Positions 31,332 through 62,458 of a stretch of DNA of 64,000 bases are shown here, piece after piece. The notes below the pieces were generated by a model. The model did no database searches, was not told the DNA's origin, and was given only the letters and a program-made list of their open reading frames with translations. Position 1 is the first letter of the stretch. Each line of letters opens with the position of its first letter. The DNA comes from a virus: positions 1-64,000 of the IMG/VR virus record IMGVR_UViG_3300032116_000065; one strand, 5' to 3'. Position numbers and translations under genes: made by a program.

Positions 31332-32936
31332 TTACGAAGAAATTGTACTAATTAGGACAAATTTTCCATTACCACCATACGTTGAATTTACAACGCTGTA
31401 AGAAGCTCCAGTGCCACCTATTCCTGCATTTGCGCATCTAGAGTCTGTATTATTGCCAGGATTAAATTGATATCCAGTATATAGTGTGGTTTGGCTGGTA
31501 TATGTTGGATGTGCATAACCGCTTCCTCCGCCACCTCCACCAATTATGTCCCCAGAATTTTGCCCTGCACCTCCACCATAATAACCAGATCCACCTCCTC
31601 CAGAAACTAATGCATCGTTAGGTGCAGCACTAGTGCCATATCCTCCAGTTAATGCACCTCCTGGCGTGTCAAATGAATTAGGATTCGGAAGATATCCACC
31701 TGCATTTTGTGTTCCGCCAGTGCCTGCGTATACTGATGTATTACTGCCGTTCCAAGTGCCGTTTTCTCCATTTGCGCCACCACCAGCACCACCAACGCAT
31801 ATTACACTTGGTCCACTATTTCTATGGAGACCTGCTCCTCCACCACCACCTGCAATTAAAACTGAATTTGCATGTGTTTCAGTTCCTCTAAATATACCAG
31901 TGTATGCTCCACCACCACCACAACCCCAATTACCATCATCAGTAATTGCTCCACCACCACCAGCAACACCACCACCGAAAAGCACAGTCGCTTGATTTGC
32001 GCCTCGACCACCTTCTCCAACTCTAATCGTATATGATACACCACTAGTTAGAGTTACTAATCCTTTCGCGCAGCCACCACCACCGCCTCTCATATTTCTA
32101 TGAGGAACTGTTGAACTGTCTCCACTTCCTGTTGCTCCTCCGCCACCAGCACCCCACATAATAATATTTGCTGTTAAATCGCTAGAAGTGCTTATTGTCC
32201 AAGTTCCATTTGATGTTAATGTCAATTCGCCATCTATAGATGGATCCCAGGTTGATTTCCCGTTTACTGATGGTGTGATGGAAAATGAAAGATTTCCACT
32301 TGATGCGTTTATACTAAATGCTTTGGATGATTTTTGTAATTCTAAATCTGTTGCAGTTACTGTGAAGTTATAAGTTGTTTCCACTCCAGGTGGTGATGTA
32401 AGAGTTCCACTGAGCAATCCATTCGCAGCAAGTGATAGTCCTGATGGTAGTGAGCTGCCGTCTTGTAGTGCATAACTCACTGTTGAGTCGCTCGTGGCAA
32501 CTAATGATCGTGATAGTGCACTTGACGCACCCCAAGAAGTCAATGGTGATTCAGTTACCCAAACAGGTCCTGCCGACACTACCATTCCAGGAACCACAAC
32601 TGCTGTTCCACCGTCTGGATTGACGACGTATAGTGGATAGGTTGTTCCAGTAGAAAGTGCTGGTGTTGTAAATGAGAGTGATGTTGAGTTTGTTCTTGAC
32701 ACGGAAGGAACAGCAGCACCGTTCACATAAATCTGCACACCAGCATCGAATCCTGTTCCTGTAAGAACAATCGATTCGTTGCCTGTATTTACAGTTGCTG
32801 TTGCGCTGTTTGGATAAGTGATTGTTGTGACTTTCGGACCACCACCAGCAGAAATCTGAGACACGACAGTTGTTGTCAACTGTGTTGTTGTAATCGTGTT
32901 TGCTGTGATATAACTACCGTCTAATTTGCGTGCCAT
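31332..32936 (-). CDS. fibre-tip/adhesin: anchor peptide + IPT/TIG + Ig-like + glycine-rich domain
   Basis: Shared N-terminal motif, LPSGLSLAANG, WGAGGGG repeats. Confidence 0.8.
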   Translation of the reverse strand: MARKLDGSYITANTITTTQLTTTVVSQISAGGGPKVTTITYPNSATATVNTGNESIVLTGTGFDAGVQIYVNGAAVPSVSRTNSTSLSFTTPALSTGTTYPLYVVNPDGGTAVVVPGMVVSAGPVWVTESPLTSWGASSALSRSLVATSDSTVSYALQDGSSLPSGLSLAANGLLSGTLTSPPGVETTYNFTVTATDLELQKSSKAFSINASSGNLSFSITPSVNGKSTWDPSIDGELTLTSNGTWTISTSSDLTANIIMWGAGGGGATGSGDSSTVPHRNMRGGGGGCAKGLVTLTSGVSYTIRVGEGGRGANQATVLFGGGVAGGGGAITDDGNWGCGGGGAYTGIFRGTETHANSVLIAGGGGGAGLHRNSGPSVICVGGAGGGANGENGTWNGSNTSVYAGTGGTQNAGGYLPNPNSFDTPGGALTGGYGTSAAPNDALVSGGGGSGYYGGGAGQNSGDIIGGGGGGSGYAHPTYTSQTTLYTGYQFNPGNNTDSRCANAGIGGTGASYSVVNSTYGGNGKFVLISTISS

Positions 32937-32948
32937 TTTCTTTTCCGA

Positions 32949-58915: not shown

Positions 58916-61900
58916 TTATCCTCCAAATACAATAGCCATTGCTATTGCTTTTCCTGTTCCGATTCCTGCTGCGCCACTTGGACCAGATGGACCTGTTGGT
59001 CCAGTCGAGCCAGTTGGTCCTTGTGGACCCTGTGGACCAACTGCCATCAAATTCGATAGATTTCTAAAGTGCGTAAATGTTACAACATCATTCACTTGCG
59101 CTGCAGTGTTTAGAGTGACGATGTTATTTGTAACTTGATAATGAATGTTTGGTGTAAGAACCAAGCCATTCTTTGACACAACCAAAGATGCAATAGAAGT
59201 CACATTTTGCGTCAATGTAAATGTATTCGTATTTGATACGACAGTATTCGATGTTACTGAAATTTCTGTATTGCCAGTCGGACCAGATGGACCTGTTGGA
59301 CCAATTCTTGGAACAACAGCATCAACCCACTGAGTTGAGTTGCCATCATTGTAATAAATCTTCAATGAACCAGTGTTACTATTCCACCAGAAGTCTTGAT
59401 TCGCACGACCACCTGTTGGGGCTGTTGCAGAAACAGTGACGTTTGCGTTGCCGTCACCACCACCGCCACCACCAACACTTGTAAATGCAACGTTGATAAT
59501 TCCAGAATTGTTTGAAGTTGAAACAGTGACAGTTGCAGTATTAACGAAATTGATATTGCTAGAGACAAGAACTGATCCACTGTTTGTGGTGACTGTCGTT
59601 GCTGGACCCTGTGGTCCTTGTGGACCTGCGCTACCAGTAGCACCCTGTGGTCCTTGTGGACCAGTGTCACCAGTTACACCTTGTGGACCTTGAGGTCCTG
59701 TTGGACCTTGTGGACCCTGAGGACCTTGAGGTCCTGTTGGACCTTGTGGACCAGCAGGACCAAGATCGCTGATGTTGATTGTTCCAGCCATCGATGCGTG
59801 GTACTGACAGACATAATATAATGTGCTTGGTGCGTCATAAGGAACATCGAATGTGATTGTGCCTACTTGAGCGCCATTGTTTGTAACACCAGTATTGTAA
59901 ATGTTACCAGAACTGTACGCACCAGAAACAGACTGAATCCAGAATGGATGCCCACTTGCATTTACACTGAATGTGTAAGTAAACCCACGCAATAAATTTA
60001 GAGTTGGATTATTTGATCCATCAATTGTGTATGCACTTGCACCACTATTTGTTACAGTATATGTTCTTGATCCGCTAACACCTTGTGGACCTTGTGGACC
60101 AGTAGCACCAGTTGATCCTTGTGGACCCTGTGGTCCTTGCGGACCTGCGTCTCCAGCAACACCTTGAGGACCTTGAGGACCAGTGACGCCTTGAGGACCT
60201 TGAGGACCTTGAGGACCAGTGACGCCTTGAGGACCTTGAGGACCCGAATCGCCGATTGTATAGACTACAATTGATGTATTATCTTCTGGTGCTGCGGTGA
60301 ATACAATATTTGCACTAGCGATATTATAATCTACATTCTCTTGTAGCACACCATCAACAAAGACAAGTGTATGTGCTTCACTAGTTGGCGGAACAGTCAG
60401 AACGAATGTTGCGGTGTTTCCATCACCAGTAAATTCATTGCGAGTAGAACCAGGATTACCAGTGCCAGTTCCTGATGGACCAGTCGGACCAGCAGGACCA
60501 GATGGACCTTGCGGTCCAGCGCTACCTGTAGCACCTTGCGGACCTTGCGGACCTGGATCACCATTAAATCCTTGAGGACCCTGTGGTCCTTGTGGTCCTT
60601 GAGGACCTTGTGGACCAGATGGACCAACAACACCCTGTGGACCTTGCGGACCTTGTGGTCCTTGCGAACCTTGAGGACCTTGTGGACCAGTGTCACCTTT
60701 ATCACCAGTACGAACAAATGTAATAATAACATTCGTTGAGTTTGATAGTGTGGTTACACCTGATGTGTGAGCAATAGGAACAGCGAAATAATTAGGAAGT
60801 TCGGCATGCAAACCTGTGATATTAAAGAATGCAAATTCAAGAACATTTGCAGTGTTTGCAACTTTAAATGTTCCCTTAATTGAGGAAGTTGAATCGTCAA
60901 TCGTTTGCAAATAATTAAACACATTTGCTGTAGATTGATCAATGAAATCAATAAACAATGTATTTGCTGAAGATAATGTTACGTTATTAAACGTAAGATT
61001 TGCAACGCCAGGGTCTGTATTGGATGTACTTGTTAGGTAAGTATAATCAAATGTTGCACCACCAAAATCACCAGTATCACCTTTTACGCCTGAAGGACCA
61101 ATTGGTCCTTGCGGACCAGCAACACCTTGTGGTCCTTGCGGTCCCTGTGGACCAATATCACCTTGAACACCTTGTGGTCCTTGTGGACCCTGTGGACCTT
61201 GCGGACCAGATGGACCCTGAGGACCAACTGCACCTGATGGACCTGACGGACCATCATTACCCTGCGGACCAGATGGACCAGAAGGACCAGAAGGACCTGT
61301 TGGACCAGCAGCGCCAGCAGCACCTTGAGGACCTTGTGGACCAGAATCACCAATCGTGTAAACAATAATTTGAGTATTGCTATCTGGTGCAGTGGAGAAA
61401 ACTACGTTTGCACTGGAAATATTGTAAGACGAGTTTGGTTGAACAATACCATCAACAAAAACGATTGTATGTTCTTCACTAGTTGGTGGAACTGTAAGTG
61501 CAAATACCGCTGTATTTCCATCACCAGTAAATTCATTTCTTGTAGAACCAGGATTACCTGTACCAGTTCCTGATGGACCTGTTGGACCAGCTACACCACT
61601 TGGTCCTTGAGGACCTTGTGGACCAGTTGGTCCAGCATCACCATTTACTCCAGATGGACCAGTTGGTCCTTGTGGACCAGAGTCACCAATCGTGTAAACA
61701 ATAATTTCATCATTGTTTGCAGGAGCAGTCGTGAACACAATATTAGCATTTGCAATATTATATTCGGCATTTCCTTGCAAAATTGTTCCAACAAAAACGA
61801 GAGTGTGTTCTTCACTTGTTGGTGGAACAGTTAAAACGAAGTTAGTTGTATTACCATCACCAATAAAGATATCTCTGGTTGATCCAGGATTACCTGTACC

Positions 61901-62458
61901 AGTTCCTGATGGACCAGTCGGACCAGCCACGCCACTTGGTCCTTGAGGACCTTGTGGACCAGTACCACCACCGCCTCCAGCAAGAGATTCGAATGCAACG
62001 TTAACAACACCATTTGCTGTTGTTGTGACAGAAACAGTTACGTTAGCTGTATTGACAAAGTTGAATGTATTAGCGCGAATAGTAGTTCCGCTATTTGCTT
62101 GAGCAAAGACGTTACCAGTGAGATCTGTAATGGGCGCAGCATCCCATGTAAGCATACCTGCTTCATCAGCACCAAGAGTTGCAACAAGAGGAGAACCATT
62201 TGCATTTCCGTAATAGATGTAAATGGTGTTGCTTGAAACGTGAAGATCTTTCCAAACAGCCGTGTTTGATCCAAGGCTATATGCATTATTGGAAGATGGA
62301 ATAATATTCTGTGCGAATATTGTAGAGCCAACAGTTAAGTTGCCACTGATATTCGCAGATTGAACGTTGGTGATATTACGACTTGAATCGACAACAATGG
62401 TATTGGCTACATCAATACCATGTTTAACGCTGAAGGTCTTATTAGTCGTATTTGCCAT
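58916..62458 (-). CDS. long collagen-like fibre/scaffold with repeated GDGNT domains and a cupredoxin-like domain
   Basis: Extensive GPQ/GPS triplets; HPFWI...CQYHASM; ends [11 protein letters not shown]. Confidence 0.88.

Follow-up and report, generated by a model that had tools for sequence, protein, structure and literature searches.

The 64,000-nt stretch analysed here (hereafter the window) is the first part of the 101,318-bp viral record IMGVR_UViG_3300032116_000065 of IMG/VR, and it is the fibre, or host-recognition, gene cluster of a T4-like marine myophage that has not been cultured. Two groups of proteins encoded in this cluster are considered together. It is well supported that seven proteins with differing heads share one modular N-terminal attachment element (the anchor), and two collagen-like fibre proteins are interrupted by seven domains of the Pfam family DUF4183 (the knobs). 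The best single explanation of the arrangement, which we put forward tentatively and at a little below even chances, is that the DUF4183 knobs on the collagen rods would be the sockets for the anchors. The resulting architecture is probably a many-branched version of the known anchor-branch complexes of phages and of the hook/DUF4183 joint of F-ENA appendages rather than a new category.

The minus strand encodes all genes of the region, and the coordinates by which a preliminary description of this DNA cited them are gene 3' ends; the same coordinates serve as gene names below. That description had claimed that seven proteins carry one N-terminal anchor in front of differing C-terminal parts, and the count is exact: the regular expression [KL]L.G..I...[TS][IV]...[QK][LM], searched over the whole record and in six frames, matches exactly seven open reading frames (ORFs), each at residue 4 or 5, and the six-frame scan of the 101,318 bp gives no further match. 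The idea that the seven share just an anchor is true of the two mini proteins of 63-64 aa (34989 and 43721), which have only this element in common with the other tips, but not of the remaining five (31332, 35186, 37762, 44489 and 45993), which are paralogs over 130-215 aa. Their common region consists of the anchor, a GGGPKV segment and a TIG domain (PF01833), with an additional Ig-like domain in four of the five, and the parts that follow are three LamG domains in 35186 and 37762 and Gly-rich in 31332 and 45993 (PF13385, PF21722 and PF12810 are among the families matched by the tips). Each mini opens a cassette that continues with a protein of about 110 aa and a Gly_rich_2 protein of about 550 aa (64, 110 and 568 aa in the cassette opened by 34989). 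Two of the 110-aa cassette proteins begin MPETYKILG and MPQTYKVLG and resemble anchor variants such as MPTVYKLPG; a looser expression for the hook, ^M.{1,5}[KRQNE][LIFV].G, also takes these two 110-aa proteins, 41760 and 50966, together with two unrelated genes, and was set aside as too weak to serve as evidence.

The anchor is N-terminal in all seven window copies and in about 29 copies in related viral records, where it also heads two other kinds of body, one of 185 aa with a PTDRVLKTGD motif and one of 80 aa that contains an INFVNT module. In a set of 1.84 billion representative proteins, a profile made from 34 anchors matches 126 proteins at E<=1e-3, and about 110 of the 126 matches start at residue 1. 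By type, 61 of these proteins combine the anchor with TIG, 23 are minis with the anchor and AYAQAN repeats, and 31 are others, while DUF4183 stands in the same chain as the anchor in 0 of the 126. The most conserved positions are M1, K4, L5, G7 and I10. Judged by these sequence contexts, the anchor is an independent, strictly N-terminal module with at least three downstream contexts in the database.

These observations also bear on an explanation that involves no docking, namely that the shared N-terminus is the legacy of recent duplication and cassette recombination and acts as a within-chain trimerisation or folding nucleus, the unit with which a common fibre repeat begins; attachment to the virion, if any, would in each protein be by other means. 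We regard this as improbable. The paralogy of five of the seven proteins, which extends beyond the anchor, agrees with it, as does the remnant ORF 40342-40443, which shows active recombination among cassettes: the start of a mini-anchor gene continues, in the same frame, into the closing part of a Gly-rich gene (MARKLKGGA followed by DGDASFASYGGSGGSGIIITKLNG), and the DNA at 40325-40445 is near-identical to that at 32932-33052. By its sequence this ORF looks like a collapsed three-gene cassette and an eighth, truncated or decayed anchor. In a few weak multi-stretch matches, anchor residues ~5-25 resemble a repeat unit inside other fibre proteins (five stretches in P0096, three in P0048), and the anchor stays below pLDDT 50 in an AF2 monomer model of the anchor, TIG and Ig parts, which was built from five sequences only (mean pLDDT 58) and is uninformative on anchor structure. 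However, the module heads at least four bodies unrelated to one another, it is strictly N-terminal in most of its database representatives, its most conserved positions overlap the contacts predicted below, and it has been dropped in a protein of another lineage whose tip body is fused behind DUF4183. One further candidate, the alternation in cis of anchor-like repeats with DUF4183-like domains in P0048, was rejected, hmmsearch finding nothing and hhalign giving a probability of 1.8%.

The knobs correspond to a domain with a GDGNT motif that had been described as occurring in three copies each in 52823 and 58916, spaced by collagen, with a divergent seventh copy near 59060-59270, and this description proved correct. 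The pattern F.GDG[NS]T has three matches in 52823-54496 and three in 58916-62458, and the unit belongs to DUF4183 (PF13799; 35.6 bits in 52823 and 34.0 bits in 58916 against a gathering cut-off of 25.1). The divergent copy (58916 aa 1076-1131) gives a non-significant 5.4 bits when the profile is made from the six copies of the window; it is considered real because a profile built only from other genomes gives 17.6 bits (i-E 2e-5). Runs of 4-33 G-X-Y triplets flank each of the seven knobs. The collagen triple helix family (PF01391) matches 58916 with 155 bits over 7 stretches and 52823 with 27.6 bits against a cut-off of 27.2, and the two families therefore occur in the same chain in both fibre proteins, as in the collagen/DUF4183 combination of F-Anchor. 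The N-termini are MAINFPNSP.. in 52823 and MANTTNKTF.. in 58916; the INFPNSP..WQWDG start of the former and a WWNS..G.LKIYY.D...QWV-type stretch in the latter, in which a further link between the proteins had been suspected, are both present. The 557-aa fibre carries a Peptidase_S74 intramolecular chaperone at its C-terminus (aa 472-520; 52937-53083, minus strand), at which the mature protein is probably self-cleaved.

An AF2 model of knob 1 of 58916, based on 34 aligned copies, has six strands and a pLDDT of 88. Its best structural match is XD2 of CBA120 TSP4 (7rfv residues 187-250; Z 10.2, rmsd 1.4 Å over 64 aa), and it also matches the N-terminal domain of T7 gp17 (Z about 9) and N-domains of several podophage fibres and adaptors (Z about 8-9 for gp17 and these taken together, with 7boz, 7ey9, 7y22 and 8i4m as structures), T4 gp10 residues 161-253 (5iv5_AC; Z 7.2), 9hze_C of the F-ENA subunit (Z 6.8, rmsd 2.1 Å over 65 aa), 9i65_E (Z 6.2) and F-ENA-2. 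The sequence profile of the knob touches, weakly, the N-region of a Klebsiella K1 depolymerase (E 3e-8), the Kp7 tail adaptor and the fibre protein gp28 of cyanophage P-SCSP1u. As modelled, the knob is the beta-jellyroll of T4 gp10 XD2/XD3, CBA120 TSP4 and the F-ENA fold. The preliminary description had drawn an analogy with cohesin-dockerin assembly, which finds no counterpart here: the Pfam families read across 20 proteins include no cohesin or dockerin family, and the fold search gives phage tail domains.

In published structures this fold serves as a trimeric receiver of partner trimers or of N-terminal hooks. TSP2/TSP1 and gp12/gp11 bind, as trimers, to the trimeric XD2/XD3 of TSP4 and of T4 gp10, respectively, with the terminal strands of the domain adjacent and the opposite face left free (PMC8825819); a similar adjacency of the N- and C-terminal strands in the knob would follow from the XD2 match rather than from coordinates. 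In Klebsiella, K1-5, SP6 and G7C phages, secondary receptor-binding proteins are mounted on T4gp10-like domains through conserved N-terminal peptides of down to 7 aa (PMC6872550). In Bacillus F-ENA, each DUF4183 trimer accommodates, in a two-protomer cleft, an N-terminal hook of 7 residues that comes from the trimer next to it; the collagen-like F-Anchor displays DUF4183 as an assembly platform that receives N-terminal hooks, the collagen-like F-BclA docks by an N-terminal motif, and in the Clostridium anchor protein (F-Anchor-3) three DUF4183 domains of one chain make a pseudo-trimer (PMC12357932).

The complex of an anchor trimer with the GDGNT domain, which had been proposed as a check on docking, was predicted with three copies of knob 1 of 58916 and three copies of the first 45 aa of the 37762 protein, each with its own alignment. 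The prediction passed, with ipSAE values of 0.71, 0.78 and 0.73 (overall 0.73, where the highest-scoring of three controls had 0.00), partner pLDDT of at least 75 and a contact agreement between runs of at least 96%; the tool's calibration has 58 of 80 solved complexes and 2 of 110 mismatched pairs at or above the mark. The predicted interface joins anchor residues 1-5 and 8-9 to knob residues 32-38, 40-41, 51-53, 55-56 and 59 of two neighbouring protomers, and by the strand order of the model the interface loops of the knob lie on the face opposite both chain ends. The prediction lends support to a putative binding between knob and anchor.

With these elements a mechanism can be proposed. The hooks, namely the seven proteins and the decayed copy, would be interchangeable tip or adaptor proteins, each composed of one N-terminal attachment module of ~30 aa and a different body: TIG-Ig with three LamG lectin-like domains, TIG-Ig with a Gly-rich head, or, in the minis that open the three-gene cassettes, a short stalk rich in Ala. 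The two collagen-like proteins would be trimeric rods in which the seven DUF4183 knobs provide the sockets. At each socket three knob domains would trimerise, with the chain ends on one face and loops 33-41 and 52-59 on the opposite, free face, where the first ~9 anchor residues (M-x-x-K-L-x-G-x-A) of a trimeric tip would insert into the clefts between neighbouring protomers. One collagen rod could in this way carry several different tips and form a multi-branched anchor-branch receptor-binding complex. Of these elements, the motifs, the domain family, the match of the fold, the synteny and the fusion described below are observed and the contact of hook and socket is predicted, while the trimeric state of knobs and tips, the place of the fibres on the virion and the binding of the host by the heads are inferred.

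Several features of the modelling weigh against docking at the knobs. The complex job was unlike the calibration set, having six chains and its own alignments, and the pass may echo solved F-ENA or gp10-type complexes and so reflect a resemblance to these instead of binding. Among the knob columns, those of the predicted interface are no more conserved than the others (mean information 2.43 vs 2.36, permutation p 0.35), a test that gives no signal either way. The knobs were modelled free of their collagen flanks, and the C-terminal strand runs straight into G-X-Y triplets; the order of the six strands suggests that both collagen segments would leave on one face through very short linkers, so that in the intact rod the knobs may fail to assemble into a compact trimer whose other face is free. 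As an alternative geometry of the node, the three domains might be splayed around a continuous rod, like XD2, which splays out in one crystal form of TSP4 (PMC8825819).

The comparison across related records is likewise against docking in part. Anchor and DUF4183 occur in the same genome in the window record (G000) and in its closest relative, G001, which has the same gene order; the numbers of anchors and knobs are 7:7 in the window, 10:9 in G001, 7:0 in G002, 3:0 in G005 and 3:0 in G007, and G032 has 9 knobs and no full anchor. Hook and socket counts do not track each other, and the 7:7 ratio to which the preliminary description had drawn attention is a feature of the window that is not conserved. 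The same description had held that anchors occurring without GDGNT domains would refute docking, and such cases exist: G002 (65 kb, 7 anchors) and G005 and G007 (48 and 53 kb, 3 anchors each) hold no DUF4183 even at E<=1. These three records span the whole syntenic block from the peptidoglycan-binding/lysozyme-like gene to the primase/RNR genes, with no long collagen fibres there. They weaken the knob as a socket but do not refute it, because they are only 28-37% complete and are without the baseplate module and structural core; their fibres or gp10-like XD domains may be encoded elsewhere in those genomes.

From the same records it can be argued that the attachment module is correctly recognised and the socket misplaced, so that the anchors would mount the tips on a shared virion site other than the collagen knobs, and the knobs would be spacers, rod stabilisers, fibre-fibre contacts or glycan-binding domains. 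We regard this, the main rival, as a genuine possibility on the doubtful side. Such a site could be provided by a gp10-like baseplate protein with XD-type domains, encoded in the 40% of the genome that is missing, or by two conserved virion proteins that always lie side by side, 30513-31310 and 29101-30528. The genes of the latter two (MKTLEEKKLL.. and MTYLYNKNV..) are the sole neighbours of anchor genes that are kept in all four relatives; in G002, G005 and G007, whose 48-65 kb contain 3-7 anchors and no DUF4183, homologues of these two are the only neighbours in common. At 62% identity the 29101-30528 protein matches a 'virion structural protein' of S-RIM32, a T4-like cyanophage of the family Kyanoviridae, and homologues of the other in G002, G005 and G007 contain collagen repeats of 48-84 aa, of which the window copy has none. 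The complete S-RIM32 genome, with two partial DUF4183-like matches in a giant ORF and no anchor, and the lack of correlation between hook and socket counts point in the same direction. On the other side, the alternative socket is a candidate only, the complex prediction of knob and anchor passed while its controls were at zero, and several independent lineages place DUF4183 genes next to tip genes, one of them in a fused form.

These lineages, more distant from the window, were found through the TIG module. In L014, L015, L017, L027, L032 and L033, the gene immediately upstream of an array of 2-5 TIG-module genes encodes a protein with one to three DUF4183 domains at its end, and the TIG-module proteins of these arrays have anchor-like N-termini, for example MTTQITANNITAGTITSTQL and MTLKISTDNIQ. 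In L027, L032 and L033, three to five TIG-module genes directly follow the gene for a protein with tandem DUF4183 domains; these proteins recall the three-domain pseudo-trimer of Clostridium F-Anchor-3. In G032, which is T4-like and has genes for baseplate, sheath and portal, the collagen/DUF4183 fibres are followed by TIG proteins beginning MSITRVIP, MAITKIPS and MAITKLPD, which are only hook-like N-termini. The fusion is found in L005, where a protein with at least four DUF4183 domains continues into the complete TIG-Ig-3xLamG body of the 855-aa type of the window, without the first ~21 anchor residues, and ends ..DDLRITKGYARYTSNFTPPTSAFKNR, as do the 855- and 858-aa proteins of the window. 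Judged by this fusion, the anchor is dispensable when both parts are covalently joined. The claim that anchors dock into collagen-borne domains thus stands as a prediction from modelling, which is favoured by the fold precedents, the complex score, the synteny and the L005 fusion, and disfavoured by the counts and by the relatives that have anchors only.

Table 1. Coordinates of anchor proteins, collagen fibres, knobs and related features (window coordinates unless a lineage is named).
Feature	Position	Strand	Description
265-aa protein MKTLEEKKLL.. and 475-aa protein MTYLYNKNV.. (phrog_1645)	29101-31310	-	adjacent pair: 30513-31310 and 29101-30528
Tip protein, 534 aa	31332-32936	-	anchor aa 1-31 (nt 32844-32936), TIG-like and Ig-like, Gly-rich head (ALK_LTK_GRD)
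Repeated cassettes	32949-35183, 41760-43912, 54513-56813, 56828-58932	-	63-84 aa, ~110-130 aa, ~540-570-aa Gly_rich_2 (two Gly-rich domains)
Mini protein, 64 aa	34989-35183	-	anchor, AAANAAYAQAN stalk, hydrophobic tail; first in cassette
Tip protein, 858 aa	35186-37762	-	anchor, TIG, Ig-like, 3x LamG (Laminin_G_3)
Tip protein, 855 aa	37762-40329	-	anchor, TIG, Ig-like, 3x LamG
Remnant ORF, 33 codons	40342-40443	-	MARKLKGGA and last 24 aa of Gly-rich protein
Mini protein, 63 aa	43721-43912	-	anchor (MAINLLPGDAI variant), AYAQAN stalk, hydrophobic tail; opens second cassette
Tip protein, 500 aa	44489-45991	-	anchor (AKL variant), TIG, Ig-like, Gly-rich head (no Pfam match)
Tip protein, 812 aa	45993-48431	-	anchor, TIG-like, two Gly_rich_2 domains
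Collagen-like fibre, 557 aa	52823-54496	-	FPNSP..WQWDG N-domain, three DUF4183 knobs between G-X-Y runs, C-terminal Peptidase_S74
Knob 1 of 557-aa fibre, aa 111-183	53948-54166	-	DUF4183
Knob 2 of 557-aa fibre, aa 220-292	53621-53839	-	DUF4183
Knob 3 of 557-aa fibre, aa 316-388	53333-53551	-	DUF4183
Collagen-like fibre, 1180 aa	58916-62458	-	eight G-X-Y runs, three canonical and one divergent DUF4183 knob, cupredoxin-like module
Knob 1 of 1180-aa fibre, aa 192-264	61667-61885	-	DUF4183
Knob 2 of 1180-aa fibre, aa 304-376	61331-61549	-	DUF4183
Knob 3 of 1180-aa fibre, aa 670-742	60233-60451	-	DUF4183
Knob 4 of 1180-aa fibre, aa ~1062-1136	59051-59275	-	divergent, DUF4183-like; profile match
Fusion protein, 1773 aa	L005:4336-9657	+	fibre N-domain, at least 4 DUF4183, TIG-Ig-3xLamG
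Tandem-DUF4183 proteins, 321-489 aa	L027:4725-6194, L032:2780-3745, L033:5451-6515	+	end in three tandem DUF4183, no collagen

Among known systems the phage anchor-branch complexes are close counterparts, that is T4 gp10 with gp11/gp12, CBA120 TSP4 and TSP2 XD2/XD3 with TSP1-3, G7C gp66/gp63.1, those of Klebsiella KP32, KP34 and Menlow, and the K1-5 and SP6 adaptor (PMC8825819, PMC6872550). In these complexes the socket is a small beta-jellyroll domain, the fold also of the candidate socket in the window; several tips that have different heads and one short conserved N-terminal peptide, and a clustering of the genes in a hypervariable host-recognition region, are common to both; a shared N-terminal peptide followed by divergent C-terminal parts, by which Latka et al. 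(2019) recognise anchor-branch proteins, is what the window tips display. The differences are that the putative window sockets are repeated (3 and 4 times) in collagen rods, whereas those of the known complexes lie in the N-terminal part of one tailspike; that there are up to 7-10 hook proteins here, with LamG or Gly-rich heads in place of depolymerase beta-helices; and that the window socket is Pfam DUF4183 at the sequence level, its binding being predicted.

The F-ENA appendages of Bacillus, Paenibacillus and Clostridia (F-Anchor, F-BclA; PMC12357932; 9hze, 9i65) have both the Pfam family DUF4183 and the fold in common with the knobs. In both systems a collagen-like protein displays DUF4183, the predicted geometry of a hook in a two-protomer cleft is the same, and F-Anchor-3, with three tandem DUF4183 domains in one chain, has counterparts in L027, L032 and L033. 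However, the phage knobs are internal, placed between collagen segments, and cannot polymerise head-to-tail because they have no hook of their own, and the setting is a phage virion with a marine host rather than a Firmicute exosporium. A further difference has to be added to the points that tell against docking, namely that the phage anchor (M-x-x-K-L-x-G-x-A-I...) does not have the hook motif M-P-psi-psi-$-P-psi. The tail-attachment N-domain of T7 gp17 and the N-domains of podophage fibres and adaptors have the fold of the knob and a role in protein-protein attachment in tails, but there the domain is a plug that binds the tail, whereas here it is repeated within a collagen rod and proposed as a socket. 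With cohesin-dockerin only the logic is common, one scaffold with repeated sockets and many cargoes with a short docking module; there is no relation in sequence or fold, and the proposed hook is a trimer-on-trimer peptide rather than a Ca-binding dockerin. The anchor-branch and F-ENA precedents are the better analogies.

The remainder of the record fits the assignment of the window. The region at 31-66 kb resembles the host recognition clusters of marine cyano- and pelagimyophages (PMC7029224), and outside the window the record, which is estimated to be 60% complete, encodes T4-type replication genes (clamp loader, DNA polymerase, and UvsX- and gp41-like proteins). Among cultured phages, tblastn with the 240-aa N-terminal region reached the TIG/Ig part only and never the anchor, in 12 records that are mostly Pelagibacter podophages and annotate the matching protein as tail fibre; a fragment with two knobs matched one record in the cultured-phage search, and blastn with 6 kb gave no relevant match.

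Further observations concern the fibre genes themselves. The 1180-aa collagen fibre and a neighbouring 837-aa Ala-rich fibre with AYAQAN repeats (G000 62562-65075, minus strand) have a common N-terminus that is different from the anchor and reads MATMNKTFSVKTGLDLANTI.. in the 837-aa protein; from its sequence, it is a second shared attachment module in the cluster. Another recurring module, (L/I/F)NF(V/I)NT(A/T).V.(V/I).V.....G..N(V/I)(A/S)F followed by a Gly run, is found in 56559-56813, 52823-54496, 58916-62458 and 62562-63998 (minus strand), and the same NF(V/I)NT-type module is present in the 80-aa anchor protein of G001. Matches to phrog_677 ('baseplate wedge tail fiber protein connector') lie in 51163-52821 (aa ~275-362) and 58916-62458 (aa ~797-898), and both proteins hold ..Y(Y/Q)C..HA.M.G.I.. 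stretches that resemble cupredoxin copper-site motifs. Two genes for 2OG-Fe(II) oxygenases (phrog_81; PF13759) at 40448-41062 and 43915-44547 (minus strand) stand among the collagen and fibre genes; fibre proteins could be substrates of their products, which might for instance hydroxylate prolyl or lysyl residues of the collagen.

Abundant marine myophages are organisms whose host recognition is poorly understood and whose hypervariable host recognition clusters are mostly unannotated. A broader proposal, which we consider possible rather than probable, is that the collagen rods of marine T4-like phages are multi-socket scaffolds in which each knob would take a different hook-bearing tip trimer, with up to 3-4 distinct lectin-like or Gly-rich heads per fibre and tips shuffled as cassettes, and that the joint is the same as in Firmicute spore appendages, implying a shared origin. 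If hook and socket were confirmed, dozens of unnamed genes in host recognition clusters could be read as plug-in tips and scaffolds, and the presence of many receptor-binding heads on one phage would be explained. The branched type of receptor-binding complex, for which enterobacterial phages are the main source of examples, would gain a form that is based on collagen and has many nodes, and Pfam DUF4183, a family of spore appendages, would be tied to the XD docking fold of T4 gp10. The hook of ~9 aa and the knob of ~70 aa would then form a simple pair of sequences that could be tested in vitro without phage culture.

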